Positions 7,570 through 39,177 of a stretch of DNA of 47,445 bases are shown here, piece after piece. The stretch is from a virus. Within the stretch, counting starts at the first letter, position 1; the number at the start of each line of letters is the position of its first letter. The notes under the pieces were generated by a model. The model ran no database searches. It was not told the DNA's origin and saw only the letters and a program-made list of their open reading frames with translations. Both the position numbers and the translations under genes were made by a program. The stretch is from positions 1 to 47,445 of the IMG/VR virus record IMGVR_UViG_3300033074_001474, one strand, 5' to 3'.

Positions 7570-9500
7570 GTAGCATTTGCTCCGCCATCTACTGTTAAAG
7601 GAAGATTTTTATCTCCTACTGGGAGTTTGAATTTGGTAAACTCATATTCAATTCGTTTACATAATTCTTCAACACTATTGCCATCAATCTCCGTCAATAC
7701 AGAATCATGAATAAATCCTAAGGGAGTACATCCTTTAATTGCAGCTATGTCTGTTGCAGCTTGCTGACATAGATCGGAAGCTGATCCTTGAATGAGTCTA
7801 TTAAGACCCTTCATATAAACATCTTCTGGGTTATCAATCTTAAACGGCCGCCCGAAAAGATTGAATAATACTGCCCCGGATTCAAGTTCGGCATCCAGTT
7901 CTTGTTTGAACTTCCAAACTCCTGAATAATGCTCCCGTAGGTTGTACACAATATCTTTACACTGCTTTTCAGTTACATGTAGCCCTTGTGAAGTAGTTTC
8001 AGCTTGAACCCTCCGCCAACCGCTGCCATAAATACAGGATAATCCAACCGTTTTAGCAATAAACCTTAATATAGGATAAGCATCTTTAACCTCGGATTCT
8101 GTAATTCCTGGCTCCATAAAATTATGGAACATAGTAATAGTATTTAGGTTATGGAATGACTGTCCATTAAAAATTAAATCACACAGGGCTTTATCTTGAC
8201 TGAAGTAAGCTAGTATTACAGGCTCAATAGCGCCTAAGTCATAGGTTGCTATTAGTTTACCTGGTGAGGCTTTAAATAAGGGCTTAAGCGATTTAGGTGT
8301 TTGTTGAAGGTTCGGGTTGCTGCACGATAATCTACCAGTCCTCGTACCATCAAAATTAAACGTAGAATGAATTTTTCCTTTGTACTCTTCTTTTCTATAA
8401 GTTGGAAGAAATCCAGTTAAAATCTTTGAAGTCTCTCTGTACTCAAGCAGTGTTTTAATCTCGGGCTCAGACTTGGCAAGCCTCTCAAGGACTTCAGCTC
8501 CTGTGCTCTCTTCTCCGTAAAAGTTTCTAATATCAAGCTTTAAATAGTCTTTAAGAAGCCATTTCATCTGCACTGGAGAATCTAGATTAAATTTAAATTC
8601 GCTTTGAGCGTACGCTTTATCGTACAGATTTTTATATTTTAGTTGTAGGTTATCTACATCCTTTGGCTTTTTAGTAGGTTTTTGATAAGCCTTTTCAAAC
8701 ATCTCTTGATATTTCTTCTGAAGATTTAAAACTTCAATTCTTTCATACTCGTTAAAAGCCTCGCCCCACTGTCCATAGATTTTATTTTTGAGTTCCTGTT
8801 CCTTTTCTTTAAATTCACCTTCGAGCTTATTAAGCTTCTCAACATCAAAATTTATTCCAGTAACTTCGGCTTGCAATAAGGTTCTAGCCCAGGGCATTCC
8901 GTAATTGCAGTAGAAATCTAATTGAAATAACTTTTTAAGTCTTTGTCTTAAAAAAAGACGAAGCTGCGTGGTATACCGCACATCTAAAGTTACATACTCA
9001 TCTGAATCATGGTCTGCTGGATTTTCCCAAAAAGGCTGAACACCTAGAAAATACGGGGCCAAAGTTTTAAGAGAGTGTAGCCCTGCTGGTCTATGATTTA
9101 TTCCTGGGGGCAGTTCCTCATTTAGTCTTTTTCTGTCCTCTTCATAAACGCCTAGCCAATGCTCATCTATTTTATCCGTACACACATAGGCCATAAGCCT
9201 CGTGTCTTCCTCGTAAGCTGAGTATCCGTTAGCGGGGAGGGAACCTAAGTGGTGTGTTAAAACTCTAAAATCCCATTTGAAATTGTGGCCACAGAATAAA
9301 AATTCAGGATCATTCCAAATCTCTTTTTTGAAGGTTTCTAAATCTCTGTATATGATAACTTCATTACTTTCTCTAGATGCATTCTGAACACCAATGACTG
9401 TTATTTTATTTTTAAAGGGATTCAGAGCATCTTCTTTTTCAGAAGTTACACTTTGGGTCTCAATATCTATCGTAAGCAGGGTTTTATCAAAAACACTCAT
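7560..9500 (-). CDS. family A DNA polymerase with 3'-5' exonuclease domain
   Basis: Exo I: LTIDIETQS. Exo II: HNFKWDFRVL. RTGRLSCSNPNLQQTP. Motif A: YDLGAIEPVILAY. Motif B: RFIAKTVGLSCIYGSG. Motif C: FIHDSVL. Confidence 0.9.
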   Translation of the reverse strand: MSVFDKTLLTIDIETQSVTSEKEDALNPFKNKITVIGVQNASRESNEVIIYRDLETFKKEIWNDPEFLFCGHNFKWDFRVLTHHLGSLPANGYSAYEEDTRLMAYVCTDKIDEHWLGVYEEDRKRLNEELPPGINHRPAGLHSLKTLAPYFLGVQPFWENPADHDSDEYVTLDVRYTTQLRLFLRQRLKKLFQLDFYCNYGMPWARTLLQAEVTGINFDVEKLNKLEGEFKEKEQELKNKIYGQWGEAFNEYERIEVLNLQKKYQEMFEKAYQKPTKKPKDVDNLQLKYKNLYDKAYAQSEFKFNLDSPVQMKWLLKDYLKLDIRNFYGEESTGAEVLERLAKSEPEIKTLLEYRETSKILTGFLPTYRKEEYKGKIHSTFNFDGTRTGRLSCSNPNLQQTPKSLKPLFKASPGKLIATYDLGAIEPVILAYFSQDKALCDLIFNGQSFHNLNTITMFHNFMEPGITESEVKDAYPILRFIAKTVGLSCIYGSGWRRVQAETTSQGLHVTEKQCKDIVYNLREHYSGVWKFKQELDAELESGAVLFNLFGRPFKIDNPEDVYMKGLNRLIQGSASDLCQQAATDIAAIKGCTPLGFIHDSVLTEIDGNSVEELCKRIEYEFTKFKLPVGDKNLPLTVDGGANATWE

Positions 9501-10071
9501 TCATACCATCCGAGTCTACTAGTTTTAAATATTTTCTTATATGTTTTAAATCTACTGTATCAATAGTAAAGACTTTCCAGTCCTCTGTGGAGTCTTGAAA
9601 CAAGCCCTCACTCAAGACTTGAATATCTACCTTTAAATCTTCATCTCTAGTGTCTTTTCTTATTAAGACTATGTCGCCCTGCTTAAATTGCCTAGCCATA
9701 TTGATCAATTCTGAATCAAGGATATCCTCTTTAAATTTAAATTCTCCAAAACTTAAAGTAAAATCTTCTGTAACTTCATAAGTGTATATGTGTCTAAAAT
9801 CTGTTCCAAAGATTAAATGTAATTTCTCCTCTGGATTTAAGTCATATTTAATATTATTTTCCCAAACACTTGGCCTATCTATGAATAGCTTATATATCTT
9901 CATAAGCTCCGGTGAGGATCTATATGGGCTGAAGTACTTCGGATAACTTCTATTTAGCCAAGCTAGGTTTTGTAACTTGGTTATAGCTAGACTAAGCTGA
10001 GCCTTAGGAGTATTTAGGACATGTCTTTTAGCCTTCTTCATCAAAGAATTCCTTTTCAGCTTGCTCCTCAT
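9487..10071 (-). CDS. hypothetical protein, 194 aa
   Basis: ORF track. Confidence 0.6.
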   Translation of the reverse strand: MRSKLKRNSLMKKAKRHVLNTPKAQLSLAITKLQNLAWLNRSYPKYFSPYRSSPELMKIYKLFIDRPSVWENNIKYDLNPEEKLHLIFGTDFRHIYTYEVTEDFTLSFGEFKFKEDILDSELINMARQFKQGDIVLIRKDTRDEDLKVDIQVLSEGLFQDSTEDWKVFTIDTVDLKHIRKYLKLVDSDGMNECF

Positions 10072-10372
10072 CTTGAGCCTCTACTTCCTCTTTTAAGAAG
10101 AACATTAATAATCCTAAAATTACGCCCTTACCAAAATCAGAATTCAAATGCTCATAAATAAAGTCAGGTTGAAATTGGTTTTTAGTTAATAAATCTAAAA
10201 TCACAGATTCATCACTTCCAAAATACAACTCAAGTAAGTTGCCACACTGCCCTCTTTGATCTAAAATTGCTTGATATAGAGTTGTTGCTACTTCCTCCTT
10301 ATCAAAGACTTCATCTGCCCAGTAAGGCATAACACTTTTTTTATTTGGCTTTTTAAAATGAACAATTCCCAT
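10028..10372 (-). CDS. hypothetical acidic protein, 114 aa
   Basis: ORF track. Confidence 0.55.
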   Translation of the reverse strand: MGIVHFKKPNKKSVMPYWADEVFDKEEVATTLYQAILDQRGQCGNLLELYFGSDESVILDLLTKNQFQPDFIYEHLNSDFGKGVILGLLMFFLKEEVEAQDEEQAEKEFFDEEG

Positions 10373-10375
10373 TCA

Positions 10376-10945
10376 TTACTTCTTATTATTCTTTTTTATA
10401 TTACTCTTTAATAAAAACTTCTCAAACCCCGTAACACCTACTGCTATTGAATCTAATGCATCATACCTGTGAGCTTTAATTAAATCAAGTAATAGACTAT
10501 CCTCTGGAAAAAATGGAATTAATCCAAGAGCTACTTGCTCCTTATCTGATTTTCCACTTCCCCCAACAAAGGACTTAATCTGCATATTTGATACGTGCTC
10601 CATTTGCACGCCAGAAGGGATGACTGCCATGATTGCTCCAATAACTCTCTGTAAGCTCTCTCCGCCCTTACCTAACATCACCGTAGACTCTACGAACACC
10701 ACATAATTAAGCTTATTTTCATCAAGTTTTTTAAATTCTTTAACAAGCTGTATTACTAACCCCTTTATCCTAGTTCTAAGCTCTGGTGATGGCATAACCA
10801 TTTCTTTAGCGACTAAAACTTTTTGAGTATTTGGATCAAATACAGAGAATCCAAGTGCAGACCTTGAACCTGTTGATGGGTCAATCCCTACTACTAAGGG
10901 GAACTCTTTACTTTTGCTTTGCTTTTCGTTTTTCTTGTCTTGCAT
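10376..10945 (-). CDS. RuvC-like Holliday junction resolvase
   Basis: VVGIDPSTG (first Asp), VFVESTV (Glu), AHRYDALDSIAVG (C-terminal D-x-x-D). Confidence 0.65.
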   Translation of the reverse strand: MQDKKNEKQSKSKEFPLVVGIDPSTGSRSALGFSVFDPNTQKVLVAKEMVMPSPELRTRIKGLVIQLVKEFKKLDENKLNYVVFVESTVMLGKGGESLQRVIGAIMAVIPSGVQMEHVSNMQIKSFVGGSGKSDKEQVALGLIPFFPEDSLLLDLIKAHRYDALDSIAVGVTGFEKFLLKSNIKKNNKK

Positions 10946-11655: not shown

Positions 11656-11658
11656 AAA

Positions 11659-12192
11659 TTAATACTTTGTTATAGGATATTCAATTTGATTAAATTGGTT
11701 AATCCTAAATGTACATTTTTGTTTGTCAGTAGTTTGATAAGTAGTATTTGGTTGAAGAATAGTTAAGAACCTGCGCCCGCCGCCATCTTCAAAAAATGCT
11801 ACCAATCTACCACTTTCAGTTTCGCCTTCATCAAGTCTGATAAGAACTTCGTCGTAGTGGCCTGGGAAGTCGTCACATGGGTCAATCAAGCTAATGCCTT
11901 TTTTAAGGGTTGCATAATAAGTAAGCTGCGCTTGCATTGCATTTATTTCAAGTTGAAGATCTTCATTATTCTTGTTAATCTCTGTAGTAATTTCAGCAGC
12001 AACTTCAAACAATAATTTTTCATTATCGTCAATTCTTGCATCTTGCTGACGGTCTTTATAACCAAAAACTAAATCGCATCCTGCTTCGAGAAATGAGCCC
12101 CTACACGCTGAGTTTAGGCCATCTGTTACACCACAACCTGTCTGTAATAAAGCCGAAGCTGCTAGTAAACTACCTATTATTAAATTTCTCAT
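11659..12192 (-). CDS. lipoprotein, 177 aa
   Basis: Signal plus lipobox: SLLAASALLQTGCG. Confidence 0.7.
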   Translation of the reverse strand: MRNLIIGSLLAASALLQTGCGVTDGLNSACRGSFLEAGCDLVFGYKDRQQDARIDDNEKLLFEVAAEITTEINKNNEDLQLEINAMQAQLTYYATLKKGISLIDPCDDFPGHYDEVLIRLDEGETESGRLVAFFEDGGGRRFLTILQPNTTYQTTDKQKCTFRINQFNQIEYPITKY

Positions 12193-12499: not shown

Positions 12500-12704
12500 A
12501 GCTTGATTTCTCCTCTGCTATTTTATCTGTGTACTTAACTACTTGTTCACGAATTTCTTTTCTTCTTCTGGCAATCTCCATATCAATGAGCTTGCTTTCT
12601 GCTCGCTGAGCCCTAGTTTTATAAAAGACGAAGCTGCTGATACCCCCGATGATTAATAGAAGATTTATTAGTGCGTTGAAATCATTCCCCATTTTGGGCC
12701 CCAA
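12426..12704 (-). CDS. N-terminal-anchor membrane protein with coiled coil (holin / i-spanin-like architecture)
   Basis: LINLLLIIGGISSFVFY TM segment, then a charged coiled coil. Confidence 0.5.
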   Translation of the reverse strand: MGPKMGNDFNALINLLLIIGGISSFVFYKTRAQRAESKLIDMEIARRRKEIREQVVKYTDKIAEEKSSYEQSKNETLDIIKRIDNGDDTPAS

Positions 12705-13500: not shown

Positions 13501-13706
13501 TTCTTTTTTCCTTTAAAAATACCTACAAAATCTCTTTTATTATCATATCTAATTTTAAATCCTGATTTCTTTAAAGCCTTATTAAACTTATATATTGTGG
13601 CTTGAGACCTCTCTAAATAAAAAACATAACTTAATGGCCAAGGTTTGAAATTCTTCTTGTTAAAATGATTCCTAATATCCCTTAAAGTTAGTTTTAATTG
13701 TTTCAT
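13497..13706 (-). CDS. hypothetical basic protein, 69 aa
   Basis: ORF track. Confidence 0.55.
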   Translation of the reverse strand: MKQLKLTLRDIRNHFNKKNFKPWPLSYVFYLERSQATIYKFNKALKKSGFKIRYDNKRDFVGIFKGKKK

Positions 13707-14284
13707 TATTTTGTTCCTCTAACTGGTGTACTTAATGTTTTTTCTATAGACCAATTATATCTACTGAGTCTTTTGTCTATAGTAGACTGCTTTAATCCTG
13801 TAATTTCACTCCATTCAGCTTGGGTTTTTTCTGTTCCCTTATAAGTTAGTTTCTTATTGTATTTTCCTCTATTCCTGTTCTGTTCCTTCTTTGTAGCCCA
13901 TCTACAGTTATCTTTGCTATAGCCTTTATTATTATCTATTCTATCTATAGAGCATTCTTTAGATGGCCTTGGCCCCATATCCTTATAAAAAGTTTCAAAG
14001 CTGTTTTTCCATTCATCACAGACAGTTATTCCTCTAGCTCCATAGTTTTCGTATCCACTTACTCTAGGATCTTGACATCTTCTTCTTATATCTATCCATA
14101 TTCTGTATTCTGTACTTTTTGTTCTTCTATGTTTACTCTTTAAGCAGCCACAAGATTTTTGTATTTTATTTTTTATTCTTGAAGCAATACATGTAAAAAC
14201 CTTACCGCAAAAACACTCATATAAACCGTACCTTTTTAATTTATGCTTTTTATAAAATGGTGATAAGCAAACAAGGTTCTTCAT
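13706..14284 (-). CDS. HNH_3-like (degenerate, D-R) homing-endonuclease-like protein, paralog of 7015..7569
   Basis: YRIWIDIRRRCQD...YGARGITVCDEW...SIDRIDNNKGYSKDNCRWATKKEQNRN. N-terminal Cys pairs. Confidence 0.6.
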   Translation of the reverse strand: MKNLVCLSPFYKKHKLKRYGLYECFCGKVFTCIASRIKNKIQKSCGCLKSKHRRTKSTEYRIWIDIRRRCQDPRVSGYENYGARGITVCDEWKNSFETFYKDMGPRPSKECSIDRIDNNKGYSKDNCRWATKKEQNRNRGKYNKKLTYKGTEKTQAEWSEITGLKQSTIDKRLSRYNWSIEKTLSTPVRGTK

Positions 14285-15014: not shown

Positions 15015-15016
15015 CT

Positions 15017-15100: not shown

Positions 15101-15102
15101 AA

Positions 15103-15954
15103 TCAATTTCCTAAGCTTACATTGTTTTTCTTAAGAAACTGGATTATAGACGAAGCTGGTACCATATATCCTTGTGCTGGGTATGGGATAGCATATTCTT
15201 TAGCAAAGATGATTCCAGCTAATGACAAGGTTCCGTCGTTTAATGAGTAAACGCCGCCGCCTGAATCTCCATAGTTTATTAAACTTGAAAGCTTGTACAT
15301 AGGCCCTGCAAACTGTTCCGCGTATGGTGGCTCTCCTTCTTGTAGTTTTGGGTAGTTGATTGAGTTATGATTCATTGTGGAGCGTTCTAAAACCTGCGCC
15401 CTACGCTCTTGGAACATAAAGAAACTACTCATTTCTCCTCTTGCATTTGTTTGAGGATTTGCATAAGAGTAAGCAGCTCCAATTAAGGTATCTGTAACTT
15501 GTGGGTCTGGATCTAAGATATTCAAGATTGGGAGATATTTAAGGTGAATTTTGTTTACCTTTAACAGGCAGAGGTCTTTCATGTTATCAACAACTTGTGA
15601 ATCTATTTTATATTCATCTCCATATGTATCTTGAATTAGAAAATAAATGTGTGGTATTTCGTTTTCTTTCTTCATTCCTTGGCATATGTGATGGTTCGTC
15701 AGTACCAAGCCTTTGGCGACATAAATGCCATTTCCTGTATAATAATTTCTTTTTAAGTTTTCCTCAGTTATTGATTCATCTGATCGAACTATAATCCGAA
15801 TAGCTCTGGCCTCCATTTGCTCCCTTGGAGATTGAGAGAATACTGGAGTTGATGCAAAGCCTCTTGTTAAGGCTGCCTCTCCTAATATTACACCTAAACT
15901 AAAAAAGGTTATAAATATTAGCGCTAGAACTAGTACTGTGAATATTTTTTTCAT
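15103..15954 (-). CDS. secreted trypsin-like (S1) serine protease
   Basis: Triad context: LTNHHIC (His), DLCLLKV (Asp), GDSGGGVY (Ser). N-terminal hydrophobic signal/anchor. Confidence 0.7.
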   Translation of the reverse strand: MKKIFTVLVLALIFITFFSLGVILGEAALTRGFASTPVFSQSPREQMEARAIRIIVRSDESITEENLKRNYYTGNGIYVAKGLVLTNHHICQGMKKENEIPHIYFLIQDTYGDEYKIDSQVVDNMKDLCLLKVNKIHLKYLPILNILDPDPQVTDTLIGAAYSYANPQTNARGEMSSFFMFQERRAQVLERSTMNHNSINYPKLQEGEPPYAEQFAGPMYKLSSLINYGDSGGGVYSLNDGTLSLAGIIFAKEYAIPYPAQGYMVPASSIIQFLKKNNVSLGN

Positions 15955-16049
15955 CCTTGAATTCTCCCTTTATTAATCTTATATGGTAAGAAAGTTTATT
16001 AAGACCATTAATAAGCTGTTTCATATTAAGACGAAGCTGCTTGATGTCC

Positions 16050-18119
16050 TTAGTTTCCTTTGTCATACTCTTTACTGCCCTCTTTAATAAGACCTTTCAA
16101 TAAGTCAATCCGGTTAATACCTTCGGTGATTTTTGGTCTGGTAGTATTGTTTAATGATTGAATGGAGACATAATATTTCTTCACATTCCCATGATTTACT
16201 TCTTTGATTTTCTTTTTAGTCATCCAATCTCTAATAGAGCGCCTGTCTGAGTTCTTCAATTCATTTAAGCCGAGCTGGTCGGCGATCTCTTTAAGCGTAT
16301 AGCACTTATCTCCTGCTGTAACTCGCGCCTCGAAGCTCTCTAAGATATCACTACGGGATATGAATCTCTCGTTATATTGGTTAACAGTATCAATTTCAGC
16401 TTGATTAAACCAGGCTCTCTCCCCCTGCTCCATTAATACCTTAGCCTCTGCGAATACTTGTCCAATGTCTACAGTATGATTTGCATTTACTGATTCAACT
16501 AGCATAATTAAATAGCGGCGATTGCCCGTGGTGTCATATAGGAAGTCTCTTGAATTTACACTCGCGCAAAAGCTTGTAATAGCTGAGCCAATTACTTCGT
16601 GCCTTCCATAGGCGGGTCTTGCCCGAACTTCAGACTTAGTGATGAAATCTTTTATGGCTCCAACATCTTTTGACCAAGTGACAGTATCTAGTTCACTAAC
16701 AGACCAGATGAAATATTTTAATAAGTTTAGATGAGAGTCTTTATCATCTGTATTAATATGAGCTTCAATGAAGCCTTGTGGGTAGGGCTGAGCTAATCGC
16801 CGGAACCATCTAGTTTTTCCTGCCCCTTGCGCCCCTACAAACACCAACATATTATTTTCTGAACCTGGCTTATAGATTCTAGTAACTACTCCAATTAGCC
16901 ACTTACGCAAAAAGATTTCATAAAGTTTTAGGTCTTCTTGGGTCACTTCCTCTGGGAATGTGAGAGTACCAAGCAAGTCATTGAACCTTGATTTACCGTC
17001 CCATACCACAGCTTCTAGGCTTGATTTCAGTGGATCATATCCGTTTTCTCTCCCAATTTTATTGACGACATCATTTAATAAGTCCTTACTACATCCAAGT
17101 TTATAATCATTTGCTGCAATACTTATATCACTTAAATCCATGTCATTAATGTACTCGCCTTCAGTTTTTTCAATTAAGTTCATTCTGGTATTAAGCCGCA
17201 GCTGCATCTTCATTACATTTTGAATTAAGTACCTAGCATTTTTAGCAGAGTTTTTTTCAATGATTGTAACTAGATCACCATTCCTATCTTCTTTGTATTT
17301 AACATCAGGCCAAGGACTTCTTTTCTCCCCTGGTTCGCCCCTGTCATTAAGGTATACATCTTCTAATTGATCAATATCCGTTTGATCAAGTGCTCCCTCA
17401 GGACTTGCTTTAGCTAACTCTTCAGCAGCCTCAACGTGTGTGTAGCCTTGTGTTTTTAGGTCTATCGCAGCTGCAATAAAACTTTCGTGCCAGCCTCTGC
17501 CATCAGAAACTCTTGCAATAAAACTTAATGTTTTACTGTTTAACTTACCTTTTATTAAACTGTCCTTTTTAGGTCTCCCTACTTTCTTTTTAAAATCTAG
17601 TAATTCAATTTTGTACAGAGTCTCTTTTGATTCATCCTCTATTTGATTAAAAACAATCTCCTTACAAGGGAAAAAATATCTTGCAGCATCTTTTGCAGCT
17701 TCATCTGCTATTCCATTTAGTCCAAGCTTTTCTTTGTAATAATTCCAGTGTGCTGTGTATTGGGCCGCATCCGTGATGGGTTTATCTAGAGTGAAGATAA
17801 TTCTATATCTATCAGCAGGTGGGTTCTTACCCTTTTGAACCTGATGAGATTTAGTTGTTCCCAAGATTACTCTATAGTCCTTAAAAAGCTCCTTAGCTTC
17901 ATCAAGACGAAGCTGCTTTTGTTCTGGGTAATTGTCTATATCGTAGGCTAAAACCGAGGAACTCTCGAAATTTTTGATGCTTCTGGTGCCATTAAATAGA
18001 CTTGGGGACCAAGGATATTCCGTTATTTCGGGCCCGAGATCTCCTAGATGATCAGAAAAAATAGATTGGGCCGGGGTTTTAGCTGCAAGTTTACTTAAAA
18101 ATGTTATTTTAAAATTCAT
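16050..18119 (-). CDS. VirE-family primase/helicase (VirE_N-like plus P-loop NTPase)
   Basis: N-terminal AYDIDN...YRIIFTLD primase-like region. Walker A: VGAQGAGKTRW. Walker B-like: YLIMLVES. Confidence 0.8.
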   Translation of the reverse strand: MNFKITFLSKLAAKTPAQSIFSDHLGDLGPEITEYPWSPSLFNGTRSIKNFESSSVLAYDIDNYPEQKQLRLDEAKELFKDYRVILGTTKSHQVQKGKNPPADRYRIIFTLDKPITDAAQYTAHWNYYKEKLGLNGIADEAAKDAARYFFPCKEIVFNQIEDESKETLYKIELLDFKKKVGRPKKDSLIKGKLNSKTLSFIARVSDGRGWHESFIAAAIDLKTQGYTHVEAAEELAKASPEGALDQTDIDQLEDVYLNDRGEPGEKRSPWPDVKYKEDRNGDLVTIIEKNSAKNARYLIQNVMKMQLRLNTRMNLIEKTEGEYINDMDLSDISIAANDYKLGCSKDLLNDVVNKIGRENGYDPLKSSLEAVVWDGKSRFNDLLGTLTFPEEVTQEDLKLYEIFLRKWLIGVVTRIYKPGSENNMLVFVGAQGAGKTRWFRRLAQPYPQGFIEAHINTDDKDSHLNLLKYFIWSVSELDTVTWSKDVGAIKDFITKSEVRARPAYGRHEVIGSAITSFCASVNSRDFLYDTTGNRRYLIMLVESVNANHTVDIGQVFAEAKVLMEQGERAWFNQAEIDTVNQYNERFISRSDILESFEARVTAGDKCYTLKEIADQLGLNELKNSDRRSIRDWMTKKKIKEVNHGNVKKYYVSIQSLNNTTRPKITEGINRIDLLKGLIKEGSKEYDKGN

Positions 18120-18120
18120 T

Positions 18121-18543
18121 TTAATGACTCCCTTGTTTATTATAAGACTGCTAGGGTACCTCGGTAGGTTAATGGGTTTTAATAAAAAAGAAAAAATAAT
18201 CTACCTAGGTGAATTGTTCTTCTAAACCCTTCTAGGAGACTATCTCTAATACAATAGAGCTTATAATGGGAATATGGTGTTATGTTAGTGTTAATATATT
18301 ATATATATAGAGGGAATAGAAAAATAAATTAATTAAGAAGGATAAGATAAATAGATTAAATATATTTATAGGGCTATATAAGAAAAAGAAAATTGACCCA
18401 CAACTAACTTTATCATTAAAGTGCGCTAAAAGGACTACCCTAGGCTACCCTAGTGACCCCTTAAAAAGAATTGAAAGGATTTTTGTCAAATCAAAATAAA
18501 CAACGATAGGGATAAATATAACTAGGGCTTATAACAGAGAAAT
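18121..18543. promoter_or_regulatory. AT-rich ORF-free region with TACCCTAG repeats upstream of the primase/helicase gene (ori and/or promoter/operator candidate)
   Basis: CTACCCTAG occurs twice in tandem (18435-18443, 18445-18453). There is an inverted copy CTAGGGTA (18151-18158) and a related CTACCTAGG (18201-18209). These flank a very AT-rich core (18290-18400). On the '-' strand, TATAAT lies 26 nt upstream of the primase ATG. Confidence 0.35.
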
Positions 18544-18965: not shown

Positions 18966-19241
18966 TTATTGATCCTTGCTTGAATGAAGCCGAAGCTTTT
19001 TCTTAAATCTCTGCTTGAATGAAGCCGAAGCTGCTGGTTGTTTTAATCTCTTGCATCTGTCAAAATTAGTCTCAACTTCTATTTCGCCATTGGATAGTCT
19101 AAAGACAAACTTGCCTTGGTCGAGTGTTGACAAGTAACCACAGAAACTACTAACATCAATTAGGGTATCGTCGAAACATCTTATGGCGCGTCTTTCAATA
19201 TCTTCAGTTTTAATTGTGGCTATCCATGTTTTATTTTTCAT
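18966..19241 (-). CDS. hypothetical protein, 91 aa
   Basis: ORF track. Its 3' end contains the 21-nt direct repeat. Confidence 0.55.
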   Translation of the reverse strand: MKNKTWIATIKTEDIERRAIRCFDDTLIDVSSFCGYLSTLDQGKFVFRLSNGEIEVETNFDRCKRLKQPAASASFKQRFKKKLRLHSSKDQ

Positions 19242-19859: not shown

Positions 19860-20290
19860 GCATTCAAGCTTAATAATAAGAGATATAATTAATCATTATA
19901 ATCTAGTTATTGGGCAAAAATTGTGAGAAAGTTGTATGTGTACAAAATATGTACATTTGATTTTTTGCGCGAATTGTATCTACATACAATCCACATCTAA
20001 TAAAATCAATAGGTTACAAATCCACACAAGCCAATCCAACCCATAATGCAACCTAAAAGACTCCAACTTAGCTAACCTAAACCTCTCTAGCGCAATATAT
20101 AAGGTATAATAAGGACTACATTGAATGTAATGGGGGATATAGACGAGCTTATTCCATGGCTTGCCCTTAAATTTGAGATGGGGCGCGTGCCAGCCACGAC
20201 TGCGACCAACCTTAAGCTTAGGGTAGTTAAAAGCGTAAGGGACAGCTATTAAACCCCACTTATGATATAATTAAACTCAGGAGGCGGGAT

Positions 20291-20806
20291 ATGAGAGTTT
20301 GTTATATATGCAAGATTGCAGGGGAGGAGGAAAGTTTCCCTCTGAGCCATGGGAAAAGGGAAAACAGGTGTAAGAAATGTAAGAGTAAGGCGAATAAGGA
20401 TTACTATAATAAACTGAAAACTGATCCTATAAGATTGGATAAATATAGAGAAGGGGCTAGAAAAGCTAAATATAAAAGTAATAGAACTATTGAAGGCCGT
20501 TATGGGAACCTTATTAAACAAGCTAAGAATAGAAATATAGAAGTTAAACTTACCTTAGAAGAGTATTCCTATATTATAAAGGATTTAAAATGCCATTACT
20601 GTAAGAAGGAATTACATGCCACTGGAAGTGGTTTAGATAGGAAAGATAATAATAGAGGATATGAGAAAAATAATGTAGTTGCTTGCTGCAAACACTGCAA
20701 TGAGAGAAAATCAAACTGGTTAACTTATGATGAGTACATAAAAATCATTGAGTTTTTAGAGATTAGTAGGGGAACAAGGAATATTAATTTAAAAAACAGG
20801 ACTTAA
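20291..20806 (+). CDS. HNH-like endonuclease (D-R variant), upstream of the packaging genes
   Basis: CHYCKKEL..GSGLDRKDNNRGYEKNNVVACCKHCNERKSN. AGGAGG RBS. Paralog of 43425..43778. Confidence 0.7.
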   Translation: MRVCYICKIAGEEESFPLSHGKRENRCKKCKSKANKDYYNKLKTDPIRLDKYREGARKAKYKSNRTIEGRYGNLIKQAKNRNIEVKLTLEEYSYIIKDLKCHYCKKELHATGSGLDRKDNNRGYEKNNVVACCKHCNERKSNWLTYDEYIKIIEFLEISRGTRNINLKNRT

Positions 20807-21032
20807 CTGCAGCTTCGGCTTAATTATAATTTACTTTACAGCAGTTAAGCTCAAGTATACTTTACATAAAAGACGCTGTATTCGATCTGAGCCCCCGCGC
20901 CTCCAGTAAGTTACATATCAAGTCACATACTGGTATGATTCCACGAAGTGGGATGTGAGCGGAGCGATATGCGAGCGTAGCGAGTATTAACCGATTTACT
21001 CACCAGAAGTGTCTTAGAGACAGGAGTACCAG

Positions 21033-22326: not shown

Positions 22327-22436
22327 ATTTCTTCAGATGTAGTATTATGTCGTAGGAACATTTCTAAGTAACCGGATTTACTGATGAGTCCGATTCAGAA
22401 AGTCTCCCTACCAAATGTCGTCCGGAGACGAGGGCG

Positions 22437-22746: not shown

Positions 22747-24219
22747 ATGAAAAGAGTTGACCCACACAAACTTTCTCAATTATCAAAAGAAGAAAAGCTT
22801 AAGCTATACGATACGCTTCAAAAAAAGAAGCAGCTTGCCAAGGCCAGCCGCGACACATTTAAGCCCCATCCTGGACAATTGCCAGTTTTAAAATCTGAAA
22901 AGTATATTCGCTTAGTCACAGCAGGTAACGGATATGGGAAAACGGCGTTAGCTGTAAACCACGCCCTGTATGCAGTTAACGGTTACCAGCCCTACTGGAA
23001 AAAACATACTAAAGCACCAAGTGTAGGAATAGTTGTACTAGATAATCCACTAAAGGTAAAAGAAGTTTGGATAAAGGAATTAGATAAGTGGTGCAATCTA
23101 ACTGAAGTTGAGCAACTAAAAAATGGGAAGCCCTATGTTAATGAGCTAGTATTCAAAAATGGGAGCCGGATTATTTTCATGTTCCATGAGCAAGAAGATA
23201 TGATTTTTGAGTCAATGGAAATGGATTGGGTCATATATGATGAGCCCCCACCAAGAAATATATTCATAGCGCTATCCCGAGGTCAAAGGAATAAATCCTC
23301 AAAGCCTTGGCAATTAATAATTGGAACGCCGTTAGCAGCAGCTTGGCTTCGCCAAGAGGTTTTCGAGCCCTGGGAGCGCGGTGAAAGAGATGACGTCGAA
23401 TGTTTTCGTGGAAGTACAGAGCAAAATAAACAAAACCTATCTGATGGGTATATGGAGCAATTTTCAAGACTCCTAACTGAAGAAGAGAAAAAAATTCGAT
23501 TAGAGGGGCAGTGGTTTGATTTAGGAGGACTTGCATTAAAACACTTAATCAAGCCAGAGCTGCATTACGTCTCGCCCTACCCATGGCACCACGATGATCC
23601 AGTAATAATTGCAATCGACCCACATCCGTCTAAAGCCCACGTAGCGATAGCTTTAGGCAAGAATAAATATGGAAGGAAGTATGCAATTGGGGAGTTAGCA
23701 GCTAAGGCCACCGCCCGTGATTTCGCCTTAAAGTTGCACGAGTGGTCTAGAGGCTGGAAGGTAGCAGATATCGTAGTAGACTCATTAGGTTCAGCAGATA
23801 CTACCGGAGGAGAAGGCTTTGCTAGCTTCATTCAAGTCTTAAAGGATTGCGGAATTAAGTGCCGGGCCACTACGTTTGAAGAAAAGGATGATGAAAGCTG
23901 GATTGATCGTATAAGATCTGTTCTTGAGATTCCTCAAACACCAGATAATTTTGGACAAACCTTACCGGGGCTTCAGATATTCAGAAACTGTCCCAACTTG
24001 ATTAAGGACATAGAGAATGTGGCTTGGTTAAAATATAAGAATCTAGATATGAATAAGCCGAAGCTGGATATTAGCCATAAAGACTACTTGGCTTGTCTTA
24101 AGTATGCGCTAGCTGCGGACGCAAATCACTCATCCCACTTAAACAGGGAAGCTAAAACAATCAGATTAGCAGAAAATAAGGCGGTAAGCATAAGAAACCG
24201 CTATTTTAATAGAAGGTGA
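22747..24219 (+). CDS. terL: terminase large subunit
   Basis: Walker A-like: TAGNGYGKTAL. Walker B: WVIYDEPP. C-terminal RNase H-like nuclease: IIAIDPH...VVDSLG. Position immediately upstream of the portal. Confidence 0.85.
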   Translation: MKRVDPHKLSQLSKEEKLKLYDTLQKKKQLAKASRDTFKPHPGQLPVLKSEKYIRLVTAGNGYGKTALAVNHALYAVNGYQPYWKKHTKAPSVGIVVLDNPLKVKEVWIKELDKWCNLTEVEQLKNGKPYVNELVFKNGSRIIFMFHEQEDMIFESMEMDWVIYDEPPPRNIFIALSRGQRNKSSKPWQLIIGTPLAAAWLRQEVFEPWERGERDDVECFRGSTEQNKQNLSDGYMEQFSRLLTEEEKKIRLEGQWFDLGGLALKHLIKPELHYVSPYPWHHDDPVIIAIDPHPSKAHVAIALGKNKYGRKYAIGELAAKATARDFALKLHEWSRGWKVADIVVDSLGSADTTGGEGFASFIQVLKDCGIKCRATTFEEKDDESWIDRIRSVLEIPQTPDNFGQTLPGLQIFRNCPNLIKDIENVAWLKYKNLDMNKPKLDISHKDYLACLKYALAADANHSSHLNREAKTIRLAENKAVSIRNRYFNRR

Positions 24220-26761: not shown

Positions 26762-27469
26762 ATGTCAGAGGACAAGTCTGGCGAAAGCCAATCTAATGCT
26801 CAGTCTCAAGAGCAAGATCCAATAAAACAGATAAAATCTGAATTTGGTAGGAAGCAAGATAATGTGATGAATGAGCTAAATAGCTTAAAATCACAGCTTA
26901 GCCAAATAGCAGACACCGTTATTCAAGCCGCAGCTACAAAACGCGCAGCTTCAGAATCCAGCGAAGAAATGCCTGATCCAGTTATGGATCCAAAAGGATA
27001 CAAGGAATATATGCGTAAGGAATTGCGTAGAGATGTAGATGAGTCTCTAAATGCAGAGCGAGAACGAAATACAGTTCTTAGTTCCTTAGTAGCTAATTAC
27101 CCGGAACTTCAGTCAGGAAGTTCGGAACTAACTCAAACAGCACTCCGAATTTATAACAGCTTGTCAGCTTCTGAAAAAGCATCGCCGTCTGGTTATAAGA
27201 TTGCAGTGATGCAAGCTGCACAAGAAGTGGGAGTATTACCAATGAACAAAAGACAAAAACAATCTCAAGGTGACGAAGATTTTACTTTATCATCATCTAG
27301 TTCTACAGCAAGACAAAAGCCGTCTCAAAGAGCGAAAGAAGAAAAAATCGACGACAAGACTTTAGAGTTTGCAAAACTTTTAGGCCGTCCGGTGAATGAT
27401 GACAAGTACATTGAGAGATTAAAAACAACTATATCTTCTCGTAAGAGAAGTTGGTCAAAATTTGAGTAA
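26762..27469 (+). CDS. scaffolding protein candidate
   Basis: Hydrophilic, charged, helix-prone 235 aa between the portal and capsid genes. Confidence 0.45.
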   Translation: MSEDKSGESQSNAQSQEQDPIKQIKSEFGRKQDNVMNELNSLKSQLSQIADTVIQAAATKRAASESSEEMPDPVMDPKGYKEYMRKELRRDVDESLNAERERNTVLSSLVANYPELQSGSSELTQTALRIYNSLSASEKASPSGYKIAVMQAAQEVGVLPMNKRQKQSQGDEDFTLSSSSSTARQKPSQRAKEEKIDDKTLEFAKLLGRPVNDDKYIERLKTTISSRKRSWSKFE

Positions 27470-30665: not shown

Positions 30666-31004
30666 ATGGCTAACATCATCAATGGTAATACGTTTTATGT
30701 AGACGCAGCTTCGGCTTCTGGTACGGAAGGAAGCTTCCTATTAGGCAAGGATATACAAATTCTTGGCGTTATCTTTACCAGTGACACCATTGGTAACTCA
30801 ATTACTATAAACGATATAAAACAATACAACGATGCAGCCACATCAGCCGCCGGAGCCCTTAAATTAGAAATATCAATTGGAGTAGCAAACGAGACTCAGT
30901 TTATTAGGCTTTCAGATATGCCTATTAGATGTGTGAACGGGATATGGGTTAGTGCTATAAGTGCTAATTCTCATGCTACAATAATCTTTAAGAAAAGTTC
31001 TTAA
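30666..31004 (+). CDS. virion-module protein, 112 aa
   Basis: ORF track. Confidence 0.55.
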   Translation: MANIINGNTFYVDAASASGTEGSFLLGKDIQILGVIFTSDTIGNSITINDIKQYNDAATSAAGALKLEISIGVANETQFIRLSDMPIRCVNGIWVSAISANSHATIIFKKSS

Positions 31005-31020
31005 GAAAGGATGAATAATT

Positions 31021-32568: not shown

Positions 32569-32598
32569 TTTCTAAAGATGACATAAGGAGAATGAATT

Positions 32599-35187
32599 AT
32601 GGCAAATAACAGCTTCAAAATAAAAAAGTCAATAAATATTGAGCCTCTAGCAAGCCCCACGCTAAATGCTGAGGGCGATATTGGAATGAACTCTACTTCA
32701 CATAAGCTCGAGGTCAGAGATAACTCAGCCACGCGCAGCGTGGTTACAGAAGATGGAACCGCTACACTCACTAATAAAACCTTTGATGCAGATGGAACAG
32801 GAAACTCAATAACCAACATTGAGAACGCCGACATCAAAGCCGCAGCTGCTATAGCTTTAAACAAGCTGGCTGCAACCACAGCAAGTCGCGCACTAGTTTC
32901 AGATGCATCTGGTTTTGTTTCAGCTGCAACTACGACTTCAACAGAGATTGGTTATGTGAATGGGGTCACATCTGCAATTCAAACTCAAATTGATGGAAAA
33001 ATTTCTGCTTCAAGCTCTGACACTCTAACAAATAAAACAATTGATGCAGATGCAAATACTATAACTAACATTGAGAACGCCGACATCAAAGCCGCAGCTG
33101 CTATAGCTTTAGATAAGTTAGCCGCAACCACTGCATCAAGAGCTTTAGTCTCTGATGCGTCAGGATTTGTAAGTGCAGCTACTACGACTGCTACTGAGAT
33201 AGGCTACGTGAATGGAGTCACATCTGCAATACAGACGCAGCTGGATGGTAAGATTGCTAAAACATTGACTACCACGACTGGGGATATGATTTATGCATCA
33301 AGTGCTAACACCCCAGCTAGACTTCCCATAGGTTCTGCTGGACAGGTGCTAAAAACTGTTGGAGGAATTCCGGCTTGGGCCGCAGCTTCTTCGGGAGGCA
33401 TCAACTACATTTCATCTAACCCTGATGCCGAAGCCGATACTACTGGCTGGGCAACGTATGCTGATGCCGCAGGAACAAGTCCTGTAGATGGAACAGGTGG
33501 AAGCCCCAATATCACTTGGACAAGAACTACATCGTCGCCTTTGCGTGGATCGGGCAGCTTTCTTTTTACTAAAGACGCAGCAAACAGACAAGGCCAAGGC
33601 GCTTCCTATGACTTCACTATTGATTCATCAGATAAAGCAAAAGTTCTTACAATAAATTTTGATTATATTGTGGGAAGTGGAACGTTTAGCGCTGGTTCTA
33701 GCTCTGCAGATTCAGACTTAACAGTTTGGATTTACGACGTAACCAACTCACGATTAATTCAACCAAGTACTATTAAATTATTTTCTAACTCAAGCACTAT
33801 TGCGGATAAATATTCTGCACAATTTCAAACGTCAAGCGACTCAACATCTTATAGATTAATTTTCCATGTAACTTCTACTAGTGCGTCTGCTTATACACTT
33901 AAGTTTGATAATTTCTCTGTTGGACCAAGTTCGTATATATTTGGAACTCCTGTTACGGATTCAAAAAGTTACTCCCCTGCTGGCAGTTGGGAAAATACCA
34001 CTTACAGTGGACAATATTGGAGAGTTGGAGACAAGTTTAATGCCCAGATAAATTTAACATTTTCATCCGCACCTACAACTTCCGATTTTTCTATGACCCC
34101 CGCTCAATTGTTTAATGGTTTGGGAATAACGCTCGATACAGCTAAGTTAGGTTCTGGAGTGATTTCTATAGGAACTTGGGCTGCTCGTGACTTGGGTACA
34201 GCAGAATACAGTGGATCACTCTATCTTTATGCGGGCACAACAATTTATATGGGTGATATTGATGGAAATGGTAACGTCACTAAAACAAATCCTTTTACGA
34301 TTGCTTCTGGAGATTTTTATGACTTACAAATTCACAATCTCCCTATTCTTGGCTGGTCATCATCTGTTCAAATGAGTGACTCAGCTGATACTAGAGTGGT
34401 TGCCGCTGGATACTCAACACTATCCTCAACATCATATACTTCCCCTAATGCAATTGTTCACACCACGAAATTATATGACACACATAACGCTTACAATACC
34501 AGTACAGGGGAATACACTGCACCAGTACCGGGAATATATAAAATAACAATTGGACGTACATATACAGGATCAGGAACCATAAATTATGGAATATATAAAA
34601 ATGGATCAATTTCATTAACAGCAGTAATTCAAGCGGGATCAGTAGCCAGAGTTAATGGCAGCGCCTCAATTCAAGTAAACGCTGGAGATAAGTTAACTGT
34701 AGTTGGAGATACTTCAGTAACCTTTGGAGATACTGGAGGTTATATCTTTTTTGAAAGACTTTCTGGCCCTTCAGCCATAGCTGCTACTGAGACTATTGCA
34801 GCTAAATATACGGCAATAAACACGACGACGTTTACTACCTCAGGAGTTGTGGCAGATTTTGCAACAAAGGTCTTTGATACTCATGGAGCGGTAACTACTG
34901 GGGCGTCTTGGAAATTTACAGCTCCAGCTTATGGAATTTATCATATATCATTAGGATTTTATCCATCATCTACAGTTGGCTTAATCATCAATTTACAAAA
35001 AAATGGGTCGGCTGTTGAAAGACTTGCAGAAATAGCTGCTAGCAGTACAGCTAAAGAAATTAGTGCCTCTACAGAAATTTTATTGAATGCTGGAGATTAT
35101 ATTGACCTAAAAGGTTTTGCAGGATCAACAACATTAACTTTTTTTAATGATTCTACATTAAATAGAATAAGCATTTTTAGGATTTAA
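32599..35187 (+). CDS. tail fibre protein with internal tandem repeat
   Basis: 862 aa, Ser/Thr/Gly/Ala-rich, with an ~86-aa duplicated module near the N-terminus. Confidence 0.65.
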   Translation: MANNSFKIKKSINIEPLASPTLNAEGDIGMNSTSHKLEVRDNSATRSVVTEDGTATLTNKTFDADGTGNSITNIENADIKAAAAIALNKLAATTASRALVSDASGFVSAATTTSTEIGYVNGVTSAIQTQIDGKISASSSDTLTNKTIDADANTITNIENADIKAAAAIALDKLAATTASRALVSDASGFVSAATTTATEIGYVNGVTSAIQTQLDGKIAKTLTTTTGDMIYASSANTPARLPIGSAGQVLKTVGGIPAWAAASSGGINYISSNPDAEADTTGWATYADAAGTSPVDGTGGSPNITWTRTTSSPLRGSGSFLFTKDAANRQGQGASYDFTIDSSDKAKVLTINFDYIVGSGTFSAGSSSADSDLTVWIYDVTNSRLIQPSTIKLFSNSSTIADKYSAQFQTSSDSTSYRLIFHVTSTSASAYTLKFDNFSVGPSSYIFGTPVTDSKSYSPAGSWENTTYSGQYWRVGDKFNAQINLTFSSAPTTSDFSMTPAQLFNGLGITLDTAKLGSGVISIGTWAARDLGTAEYSGSLYLYAGTTIYMGDIDGNGNVTKTNPFTIASGDFYDLQIHNLPILGWSSSVQMSDSADTRVVAAGYSTLSSTSYTSPNAIVHTTKLYDTHNAYNTSTGEYTAPVPGIYKITIGRTYTGSGTINYGIYKNGSISLTAVIQAGSVARVNGSASIQVNAGDKLTVVGDTSVTFGDTGGYIFFERLSGPSAIAATETIAAKYTAINTTTFTTSGVVADFATKVFDTHGAVTTGASWKFTAPAYGIYHISLGFYPSSTVGLIINLQKNGSAVERLAEIAASSTAKEISASTEILLNAGDYIDLKGFAGSTTLTFFNDSTLNRISIFRI
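32770..33260 (+). repeat. two tandem ~250-nt (~86-aa) modules inside the tail fibre gene
   Basis: TNKT(F/I)DAD..ITNIENADIKAAAAIAL.KLAATTASRALVSDASGFVSAATTT.TEIGYVNGVTSAIQTQ.DGKI occurs twice. Long identical nt runs include 32816-32860 = 33068-33112. Confidence 0.85.
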
Positions 35188-35192
35188 TAATT

Positions 35193-37250: not shown

Positions 37251-37262
37251 GAGGAGAATAAG

Positions 37263-38015
37263 ATGCCCACATTATCAATAACAAAAACTTATGCAGATGG
37301 AGAAGTTCTTTTTGAATCAGATTTAGATAGTATAAAAAACGACATTGAAACATTTCTTAATACTACTAAAATTGATGACGATAATATTCAAGACGCTGGT
37401 ATTACAGCATCATCTAAGTTAATAGACGGAACTATTACTACTGGCAAACTTGGCGCGGCTTCAGTAACAACTGCTAAGATTGCAGACTCAGCGGTGACTA
37501 CAGGAAAAATTGCAGATTCCGCAGTAACTACTGCAAAGATAAATGACTCTGCTGTAACAACGGCCAAGATAAATGATGGAGCTGTAACTACAGCTAAGAT
37601 TGCAGATGGGGCGGTAACATACGTTAAAAGAGTATCATTAAATTATAAATTAAGTAGTTCTAGTGCAAGCTTTTCAACATCATCAACATCTTATACCGCA
37701 GTAACAAATTTGAGTGTAGCTAGTCTCACTACTAATGGTCGTCCGGTATATGTATCCTTGGTCCCTGCTGAAGGCAGTTTATCAAGCTTTGATCAGTCTG
37801 GTGCCACAGGATCTATATCACTACAATTAGTGAGATCAGGTGCAGTAAACTTAGGGGAACAAACATTTATTTTAAGTTCTGGACAAAGTTCTGGAGTAAC
37901 TCCCTCTTGGATTTGGCTACCAACAGCTGGAACCTATGATTTATCTATTAGCATCAAAGTTTCTGCTGGAACCATTGGAGTAACTAACTACAAACTATTT
38001 TGTTACGAGTTATAA
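37263..38015 (+). CDS. fibre-like protein, paralog A (250 aa)
   Basis: N-terminus M.T..ITKTY.DG..L.E.DLD..KN..ETF.NTTK..DDNIQ.AGITAS.KL.DG.IT is shared with 38019..38780. Confidence 0.55.
37452..37620 (+). repeat. 27-nt (9-aa) tandem repeats (S/G)AVTT(A/G)KI(A/N)D, about 6 units
   Basis: [55 protein letters not shown]. Confidence 0.75.
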
Positions 38016-38018
38016 TTT

Positions 38019-38780
38019 ATGTCAACTATTACTATAACAAAAACCTATGATGATGGAACTCTTCTTGAAGAGGCCGATTTAGATCCATTTAAAAATAATA
38101 CAGAAACATTTTTTAATACTACAAAACTAAATGATGATAATATTCAAAACGCGGGGATAACAGCTTCAGAAAAGCTTCAAGACGGGAGCATTACAGCTGC
38201 GAAGATGGGAACAACTTCAGTCGGAGAATCAAACCTAGCAAGCAGTGCGGTTACAACTATTACTTTAAATGATCTTTCTGTTACCACTGCCAAGATCACA
38301 GACTCAAGTGTTACTACAGCAAAAATTGCTGACAGCGGTGTTGGAACTGCTGATTTTGACTCAGCCTCTGTAACCTATGCAAAAACAACTTTAAACTATG
38401 AAGTGGACGACCCCACAGGTTCAAACACATATCCAAGCTTAGTAGTTAATACTACAACGAGACAATTTCTTTGGGAGGATATGGCTTTTAGTGGAAGGCC
38501 AGTATTAATTCAAGTATTCATTGGAAGAAATGTTGGATCAAGCATTAGCACAGCAACAGTAAGCGTAGACGTTGTGGGACCAGTTATCTCCTATGCTGGA
38601 GATTTACAATTTTCAAATGCAAGTTCAGATTTTAAACTCTGTGGTCCATTAAACTTTTTTGTTCCAGCAACAGATAATGGAAATCATGACATAACCCTTT
38701 TTATTGATGCTTCTGGAGGCACTTTTTCAGCAACAGACACAACTCCAACTCGTCCAACGGTGTTAATCCTTGAACTCTAA
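38019..38780 (+). CDS. fibre-like protein, paralog B (253 aa)
   Basis: Shares the N-terminal about 60 aa and degenerate SVTTAKI repeats with 37263..38015. The C-terminus diverges. Confidence 0.55.
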   Translation: MSTITITKTYDDGTLLEEADLDPFKNNTETFFNTTKLNDDNIQNAGITASEKLQDGSITAAKMGTTSVGESNLASSAVTTITLNDLSVTTAKITDSSVTTAKIADSGVGTADFDSASVTYAKTTLNYEVDDPTGSNTYPSLVVNTTTRQFLWEDMAFSGRPVLIQVFIGRNVGSSISTATVSVDVVGPVISYAGDLQFSNASSDFKLCGPLNFFVPATDNGNHDITLFIDASGGTFSATDTTPTRPTVLILEL

Positions 38781-39177
38781 TAATTGCACAACACGCAGCT
38801 TCGACTTAATTAAAGACTGGCCTGATGTGTGCTGCTGGTGGCAAGCTCAAGACTGGCCCACGATCCCTAGAGACCACCTATCAACCATGGGGTTTATTGG
38901 GGAGATAAACGGTAAAAAAGCCGTAGCTGCATGGGTTTATACTACAAATAGCGCCTTTTGCCTATTAGAATATATTGTAATGAGCCCTGAAATTAGACGG
39001 GAAGAGCGTAAGGTAGCTTTCGACCATTTTTTAAATGATATGGTAGAATATACCAAGGATCTTGGTTTTAAGACTATATTCTTAACGACCAAATCTGAAG
39101 GTTTGATTTCACGTTTAACAAAGCATGAATTTCAAACAACTGATGTAGGAATGAAAAATTTGATAAGGAGATTGTGA
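38770..39177 (+). CDS. GNAT-like acetyltransferase candidate, 135 aa
   Basis: Length and pattern (..AVAAWVYTT...LLEYIVMSPEIRREERKVAFDHFLNDMVEYTKDLGFKTIFLTT) resemble the GNAT beta4-alpha3 core. Weak. Confidence 0.35.
   Translation: MNSNNCTTRSFDLIKDWPDVCCWWQAQDWPTIPRDHLSTMGFIGEINGKKAVAAWVYTTNSAFCLLEYIVMSPEIRREERKVAFDHFLNDMVEYTKDLGFKTIFLTTKSEGLISRLTKHEFQTTDVGMKNLIRRL

Follow-up and report, generated by a model that had tools for sequence, protein, structure and literature searches.

What could a 13-base word do for a phage that carries it in nine exact copies, nearly all inside genes and each reading in the direction of its local gene? The question is raised by a stretch of viral DNA of 47,445 nucleotides (nt), positions 1 to 47,445 of the IMG/VR virus record IMGVR_UViG_3300033074_001474, which we call the window, and by the word GCAGCTTCGNCTT found in it. 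An initial annotation, made from the letters alone, had drawn attention to this word and had considered that it may be a signal for a phage sigma-like factor, a Chi-like signal or a nick site. Here we report that the 13-mer is a genuine, strongly non-random and clade-conserved polar word under selection at the level of the nucleic acid, and we discuss, tentatively, a scenario in which its copies might serve as protein-binding sites that act on transcription.

The 13-mer is over-represented and co-oriented with genes

A pattern search of both strands of the window returned nine exact matches to GCAGCTTCGNCTT; dinucleotide shuffles gave an expectation of 0.01 copies, and the richest single shuffle held one. 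Six copies lie on the minus strand, beginning at 8955, 12150, 12625, 16028, 17904 and 19022, and three on the plus strand, at 20809, 30705 and 38795 (one base before the 38796 given previously). All nine match the direction of the local open reading frame (ORF), and the strand switches between 19034 and 20809, across the divergent region at 19.6-20.3 kb, so that the original description of nine sense copies with a flip at this region holds.

Under a stricter null model, in which synonymous codons were permuted 1000 times with all proteins unchanged, 0.016 coding copies are expected in the sense and 0 in the antisense orientation, against the eight observed. An excess of this size with the proteins held fixed argues for selection on the nucleic acid rather than on the proteins, as the initial annotation had suspected, and excludes codon or dipeptide composition, which it had wished to see examined against shuffled sequence, as the source of the word.

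The strictness of the polarity depends on how much of the word is considered. The 10-base core, AGCTTCGNCT, occurs 13 times in sense and five times in antisense orientation in the window, against 0.17 and 0.28 expected; it is enriched both ways, as the antisense one-mismatch copies at 2307, 24055 and 43384 show, with a skew of about 3:1, and the nine-to-none polarity is limited to the full 13-mer. One-mismatch copies number 11 in the window, more than had been listed before, and are without sense bias. Together the nine exact and about nine core copies are concentrated at 8.9-20.8 kb.

Lineage-specific variants of the word occupy shared positions

To follow the word beyond the window, we used 14 relative loci from IMG/VR, JGI, ENA and Logan assemblies, found via their portal, polymerase and primase sequences and cited below by label. 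The close relatives, with 61-91% primase identity, carry four to nine exact copies of the 13-mer per 14-22 kb, a density similar to that of the window, and this over-representation in independently assembled genomes indicates that the word is not an assembly artefact. Several sites are orthologous to sites of the window, a comparison that the initial annotation had proposed: the copy upstream of terS (five genomes), those in the lipoprotein signal peptide, at +203 of the primase and at +520 of the polymerase, the one after the primase stop and the one in the transmembrane-protein gene. The remaining sites have been gained or lost between relatives. Antisense copies are also found in the relatives: the protease gene has two in tandem, the primase gene has one at about +683, and there are a few others. 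With orthologous sites counted once, the window lineage has 13 sense and five antisense loci, and the total over the three lineages of the clade is about 30 sense to 6 antisense; the polarity claimed for the signal is thus strong and tied to gene direction, not absolute.

Relatives at about 52% primase identity lack the 13-mer and have their own over-represented, GC-rich words with a CAGCT head. The word of L010 is CAGCT(n)GGCTCCGCC, with eight copies that bear the head, every one of them sense, and a ninth sense copy that lacks it; that of L011 is GCAGCTGG followed by a GC hairpin whose stems covary, in eight sense copies and one antisense copy. These variants sit at four or more positions that the 13-mer takes up in the window lineage. 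The start of the structural arm has two or three of them, and the small gene that precedes the primase has one, at +207; within the primase the L010 variant forms a tandem pair at +240/+256, where the window lineage has its copy at +203, and 52 nt past the primase stop there is one more copy. In what we regard as the most telling result, positions are thus kept while the sequence changes by lineage, which suggests a cis element that co-evolves with a phage-encoded reader. In the window itself a single antisense L010-type variant, CAGCTCCGGCTCCGCCCAG, is present in a tail gene at 39892-39912 on the minus strand, so that lineage variants leave traces in each other's genomes.

Two unrelated genes of L014 each contain the word twice in tandem at a 17-nt period, as identical 30-mers. 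The pair substitutes for coding sequence with the protein length unchanged, and we rejected insertion of a mobile mini-element on this ground. No over-represented word was found in the distant relatives L009 and MW202601, the latter being the sole GenBank relative, at 30-38% amino-acid identity. A 12-kb megablast query found nothing similar among GenBank phages, and a metagenome scan with the primase yielded a single short locus.

Placement and anatomy of the copies

Six of the nine exact copies start 3-48 nt past the stop codon of an upstream co-oriented gene, a zone that holds 7.1% of sense positions as background (binomial P = 9e-6). Tight packing of the genes brings junction copies into the next gene, four of them 25-67 nt past its start codon. 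L006 shows the same post-stop placement for four of its seven sense copies and L007 for two of its four, and antisense copies are not so placed. Two of the nine had been described as intergenic; the copy at 20809 is clearly non-coding, and that at 16028 falls in an ORF (15899-16066) that is conserved, with a homologue in L006. The features are collected in Table 1.

Table 1. Copies of the word, related elements and candidate factors in the window, with counterparts in relatives
Feature	Position	Strand	Context	Counterparts in relatives
Exact copy, N=T	8955-8967	-	DNA polymerase A gene, 533 nt from start; Q-L-R-L	Exact ortholog in L006 at 18416 (N=G); one mismatch in L014
Exact copy, N=G	12150-12162	-	Signal peptide of lipoprotein gene; 8 nt past upstream stop	Same place in L004, L006, L007
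Exact copy, N=T	12625-12637	-	Transmembrane segment of small lysis-cluster protein; 45 nt past upstream stop	Syntenic single copy in L006 (14753); tandem pair in L014 (10778/10795), protein length unaltered
Exact copy, N=T	16028-16040	-	10 nt past primase-helicase stop; within 55-amino-acid ORF; 74 nt before protease gene	Syntenic copy in L006 (12105); L010-type variant 52 nt past L010 primase stop
Exact copy, N=T	17904-17916	-	Primase-helicase gene, 203 nt in; Q-L-R-L	Same position, exact in L006, L007; one mismatch in L001/L005/L012
Two-copy array	18987-19034	-	Exact copy 19022-19034 (N=G) and 11-base copy 18987-18997, 35 nt apart; 3' end of early ORF 18966-19241	Arrays of 2-3 copies, 27-31 nt period, in L007, L014, L005/L012, L011; L010 variant at +207 of the homologue of the ORF
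AT-rich non-coding stretch	18120-18543	-	424 nt, between arrays and primase-helicase start; candidate unwinding element/origin or promoter region	Array and (TA)n-rich stretch likewise upstream of primase in L007 and L011
Exact copy, N=G, in promoter-like context	20803-20830 (copy 20809-20821)	+	3 nt past HNH stop, 212 nt before terS	Conserved 212-214 nt before terS ATG in L001, L005, L012, L014; at structural-arm head, three variant copies in L011, two in L010
Exact copy, N=G	30705-30717	+	39 nt into ORF 30666-31004; 48 nt past upstream stop	Missing from L003 orthologue
Exact copy, N=A	38795-38807	+	15 nt past stop of tail-fibre-like gene 38019-38780; start of ORF 38770-39177	
Near copy CAGCTTCGTCT (sense)	15148-15158	-	Near 3' end of protease gene	Syntenic near copies in L006 (13031), L012 (13000), L014 (9156)
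Antisense one-mismatch copy ACAGCTTCGTCTT	2307-2319	+		
Antisense one-mismatch copy	24055-24067	-		
Antisense one-mismatch copy	43384-43396	-		
Hairpin-type relative of word, CAGCTTGGC-TTC-GCCAAG	23339-23356	+	Sense, terminase large-subunit-like gene; 6-bp stem, 3-nt loop	Three copies in L006
Primase-helicase (VapE-like)	16050-18119	-	Word copies on both sides and inside; candidate binder if the word marks initiator sites	
Sigma-like protein	45787-46314	-	175 amino acids; Sigma70_r2 E = 2e-5, PHROG sigma family; candidate trans-acting factor	

The word has 12 invariant positions, one free position (position 10, N) and no dyad symmetry, and it contains no stop codon in any of the six frames, as read directly from the sequence. 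Over 19 non-orthologous sites position 10 is G in 11, T in six, A in two and never C, and the base there looks uncontacted. Its flanks are weakly constrained, with GG at -9/-8, A-C-C immediately upstream, and nAT and AG downstream; the 20809 and 16028 copies have in common a GGAC before the word and a TAAT-like element after it. The N=G version could form a C(UUCG)G mini-hairpin. In the window, N is T or A in five of the nine copies, and it is T in all three in which it falls on a synonymous third position; no shared fold emerged among 40 copies folded with their flanks. These two findings suggest that in the window lineage the word is read as sequence and the hairpin is not selected, and we dropped a common RNA fold for this lineage on their account. 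Base pairing is kept only in the L010, L011 and type-H variants, the last of which, as the perfect hairpin CAGCTTGGC-TTC-GCCAAGCT, is present in the terS leaders of L001, L005, L012 and L014 and once in the window, at 23339. A loxP arm, ATAACTTCGTATA, matches the word at 8 of 13 bases, which we take to be coincidence.

Discussion

We consider it possible, short of probable, that the copies of the word are asymmetric sites bound by a phage protein specific to the lineage, which would act on RNA polymerase in the course of transcription, in a manner comparable to the operators and stoperators of phage L5. Suppose that a sequence-specific protein encoded by the clade recognises the 13-mer and acts on transcription. 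The copy within the predicted promoter that opens the late (terS) operon would then work as an operator, and at most other copies, just past one stop codon and within the first codons of the next gene, the bound protein would halt, pause or modify a polymerase that approaches from one direction. The long replication/lysis and structural operons would in this way be punctuated. The copies are co-oriented with genes, associated with cistron junctions and clustered at the entrances of both arms; that a protein binds them, which protein this may be, and that it acts on elongating polymerase are steps we infer. Double-stranded DNA would be the target: the array period of about 31 base pairs (bp), roughly three helical turns, suggests binding on one face of the duplex, and the enrichment of the core in both orientations points to DNA over RNA. 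The scenario is supported by the copy at 20809, which forms the spacer of a predicted sigma-70-like promoter, TTAACT-16-TATAAT, among the best promoter matches of its region.

The closest documented analogue, which was absent from the initial set of hypotheses, is that of the L5-type monomeric repressors, which use more than 20 asymmetric 13-bp sites located in promoters and short intergenic spaces; these sites are oriented with transcription, inactive when reversed and of subcluster-specific consensus, and the bound repressor blocks initiation or elongation in one orientation only (PMC6550527, PMC9283540). The likeness to the Cluster A phages (L5 with gp71, Bxb1, TipsytheTRex) extends over several aspects: the sites are asymmetric and 13 bp long, their orientation follows transcription in both arms, and the consensus differs by lineage while syntenic sites are kept. 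Number and location may also correspond, with some ten to thirty sites in each genome, a part of them in promoters and the majority where genes meet. The L5 system has 20-30 sites dispersed over the genome, the window the concentrated set of nine exact and about nine core copies described above. As to location, the window has one copy in a predicted promoter spacer and six of nine shortly past a stop codon, yet inside the next ORF; its sites are in first codons, not in intergenic gaps.

A number of observations weigh against the stoperator-like scenario. No homologue of L5 gp71 was found by tblastn or phmmer against the window and its ORFs of at least 40 amino acids (best E 0.7), and Pfam and PHROGs gave no helix-turn-helix (HTH) or repressor match in about 40 small ORFs, the early ORFs included. 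Lysogeny is not evident beyond a small tyrosine recombinase, which makes L5-style silencing doubtful. Sites crowd only the span between the early region and the DNA polymerase (8.9-20.8 kb); few are found in the structural arm, and none lies in 1-8.9 kb or 43.4-47.4 kb, in contrast to the genome-wide spread in L5; their density peaks around the primase-helicase gene, beside the AT-rich stretch, which fits a role in replication equally well. Antisense copies, such as the tandem pair in the protease gene, are kept in some relatives. The junction placement, too, could come in part from the tolerance of N-terminal signal and transmembrane segments to sequence change. The phage moreover belongs to an unrelated group and probably has an unrelated host, having an AT-rich genome, Gram-negative-type lysis genes and an SU10-type portal. 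With neither a gp71 homologue nor an HTH candidate, no evident lysogeny and sites concentrated in the replication/lysis module, the relation to the L5 system is that of an analogue, not of a member.

Replication offers an unlikely alternative, in which the word would be bound by a replication initiator, most likely the VapE-type primase-helicase, the arrays marking the origin and the dispersed copies serving loading, titration or regulation in the way of DnaA boxes. Every lineage has two to three direct copies with a period of 27-35 nt, together with an inverted copy, next to a (TA)n-rich stretch that immediately precedes the primase-helicase gene (three 31-nt repeats in L007), and this gene is flanked and penetrated by copies, much as in iteron-based replicons; covariation by lineage would suit an initiator-iteron pair, and the core is enriched in both orientations. 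The resemblance to the iterons and initiator boxes of plasmid and phage origins is best at the arrays, where direct repeats of lineage-specific sequence (19022/18987 in the window, and those of L007 and L011) adjoin an AT-rich stretch and a candidate initiator gene. It is lost in that the word is dispersed over 30 kb, with copies at 8955, 12150, 12625, 30705 and 38795 outside the origin or control loci, and in that it is oriented with transcription and placed at cistron junctions. Some copies are as distant as 19 kb, in genes for the polymerase, lysis and tail, and neither the post-stop placement nor the orientation has an obvious replication rationale. Even the copies in the arrays, located between the divergent promoters and the AT-rich stretch, point along transcription, not along the forks that leave this stretch, and one copy sits within the predicted promoter spacer before terS.

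Perhaps, instead, the copies are middle or late promoters used by the host RNA polymerase with the phage sigma-like protein, each a single element as for gp36 of phiEco32, a possibility that the initial annotation had raised and that we regard as rather improbable. The promoters of phiEco32 gp36 consist of a single short element (PMC12276001), consensus AATGTA centred at -11.5. The sigma gene is indeed present and the 20809 copy stands in a promoter-like context; the portal is of the SU10/phiEco32 type, the word is short, single and strictly co-oriented with genes in the window, there are copies where the late terS operon begins and ahead of both the protease gene and the primase region, the sigma-gene cluster has no exact copy, and the GGAC and TAAT-like elements recur around 20809 and 16028. 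Against this stand the intragenic location of eight of the nine copies, four of them past the start codon of the very gene that each should express, the tandem copies at 17 and 31 nt, which are not promoter-like, the conserved antisense copies in relatives and the lack of the upstream GGAC in most copies. The 13-mer also does not fit the -35/-10 spacing typical of ECF sigma promoters, and it differs from the phiEco32 element in being GC-rich and 13 bases long.

In a further reading, more doubtful again, the word would act as an RNA-level element. A phage factor would recognise it in the transcript, or in the non-template strand within the transcription bubble in an RfaH/ops-like manner, and would thereby determine 3' ends, processing, stability or processivity where cistrons meet. 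The sense bias and the post-stop placement fit this idea, as do the variants of L010, L011 and the terS leaders, in which CAGCT precedes small GC hairpins with covarying stems, and the tetraloop that N=G would allow. Against it count the lack of a maintained hairpin in the window lineage described above, the strong antisense enrichment of the core with conservation of some antisense copies, and the 31-bp arrays, which suggest duplex DNA; no Rfam family matched.

The two weakest explanations can be treated briefly. Site-specific nicking of the non-template strand is very unlikely: the short strict consensus in about ten copies, lying inside genes and conserved in the family, resembles the nick motifs of T5, phiKMV-like and tf/LUZ24-like phages (4-14 copies, e.g. 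TACT/RTGMC), and the genome has several HNH/endonuclease VII genes, but documented motifs stay on one physical strand even with two-way transcription whereas the word splits six (minus) to three (plus) with gene direction, the HNH genes that the initial annotation had in mind are not conserved in motif-bearing relatives, which leaves no conserved nickase candidate, and neither the arrays nor the promoter overlap would be explained. Equally far-fetched in our view is a Chi-like anti-nuclease signal or a selfish GC-rich mini-element spread by conversion; the 3:1 skew, two-way enrichment and gain and loss of sites do resemble Chi statistics, and the identical 30-mers of L014 and the absence of stop codons might suit a selfish element, but synteny with a sequence that changes by lineage counts against both a host-specified Chi and random selfish spread, as does the placement at junctions, a strict word with 12 specified bases far exceeds the 5-8 nt of known Chi sites, and copies that replace coding sequence at constant protein length are not insertions.

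Returning to the stoperator-like scenario, one may combine it with elements of the replication model. A probably virulent clade would write a lineage-specific 13-base punctuation mark into first codons, immediately past the stop of the preceding gene, a factor unrelated to the L5 repressor would read it in one orientation and stop, pause or re-equip the polymerase, and the word would double as late-promoter operator and origin iterons, coupling replication to the timing of lysis and late genes. As a whole we think this combination improbable. If the sites are orientation-dependent roadblocks or loading sites, stoperator logic, which to our knowledge has so far been known in one actinobacteriophage cluster only, would extend to an unrelated AT-rich clade with an unrelated reader, and regulatory words could sit in coding sequence at cistron junctions. 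The three sequence variants at the same positions would then be a ready set in which to seek orthogonal protein-DNA pairs. More generally, an over-represented polar word with syntenic covariation is a statistical signal that can expose a regulatory system in metagenomic phages without a cultured host.

Genome context and other repeats

The window is a complete 46.6-kb phage genome of 38% G+C with an 827-nt terminal overlap; its ends, 1-827 and 46619-47445, are 98% identical over 300 nt at a spacing of 46618, consistent with either a direct terminal repeat or a circular assembly. The terminal copies differ in the number of GCCGTN hexamer repeats. Long tandem GCCGT(A/C/T) hexamers at 1-100 and 46520-46745, upstream of the sigma-like gene, read on the minus strand as a Gly/Tyr/Asn/Asp-rich peptide of low complexity (YGYGDGYGNG...). 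The leftward arm holds small early ORFs, the VapE-type primase-helicase, a protease, lysis genes, a RuvC-like nuclease, DNA polymerase A (7560-9500), a MazZ-like diphosphohydrolase, a Cas4-type exonuclease and the small tyrosine recombinase, and the rightward arm has, in order, an HNH gene, terS, a ParB-like gene, a terL-like gene, the SU10-type portal, a capsid protein and tail genes. A leftward cluster at 43.4-47.1 kb encodes the sigma-like and a GroES-like protein. Neither a tRNA (ARAGORN) nor, at a permissive threshold, an Rfam family was found in the window, and 185,579 species genomes contained no prophage relative or host clue.

Several gene products were set aside as readers of the word. 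A promoter for a single-subunit RNA polymerase was rejected because the window has no RNA polymerase gene. The ParB-like protein and the HNH enzymes are not found in motif-carrying relatives; the four free-standing HNH/endonuclease VII-type genes lie at 7015-7569, 13706-14284, 20291-20806 and 43425-43778, and those that could be compared are absent at the same places in relatives. The tyrosine recombinase (1955-2716, minus strand, 253 amino acids) has an HxxR...W...Y motif, and we discarded a recombinase half-site on finding no inverted partner across a 6-8 bp spacer in contexts inspected by eye, without a systematic scan.

Beside the DNA polymerase, which carries an intein in several relatives (L006, L010 and L014), the MazZ-like dATP/dGTP diphosphohydrolase (6523-6873, minus strand, PF18909 E = 4e-25) is conserved in all relatives. 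No match to a PurZ family was obtained among the ORFs scanned, and the MazZ-like protein may clean the nucleotide pool or take part in base modification. GC-rich non-coding stretches stand out in this AT-rich genome at 3569-3815, 4155-4361, 20830-21030 and 22327-22436, without an Rfam match, and could represent structured RNAs or a packaging site. Both the length of the terS leader, 212-214 nt, and a GATCTGAGnCCCCGCGCCTC block in it are preserved in relatives. In the divergent region a palindrome, TGTACAAAATATGTACA (19930-19960), lies among several sigma-70-like -10 elements and looks like a conventional dimeric operator separate from the 13-mer.

Two further kinds of repeat were noticed. In L007, CTTATGCTGCT-type tandem repeats, unrelated to the 13-mer, occupy two different genes (1057-1260 and 7907-8080). 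In the window, a second repeat family (26910-26937, 32822-32849, 33074-33101, 38903-38930 and 42915-42942) lies on the sense strand of structural genes, encodes K-A-A-A-like peptides and ends in AAGCCGCAGCTGC, which on the opposite strand reads as the word with one mismatch; two of its copies fall within a 252-nt internal duplication at 32791-33258.

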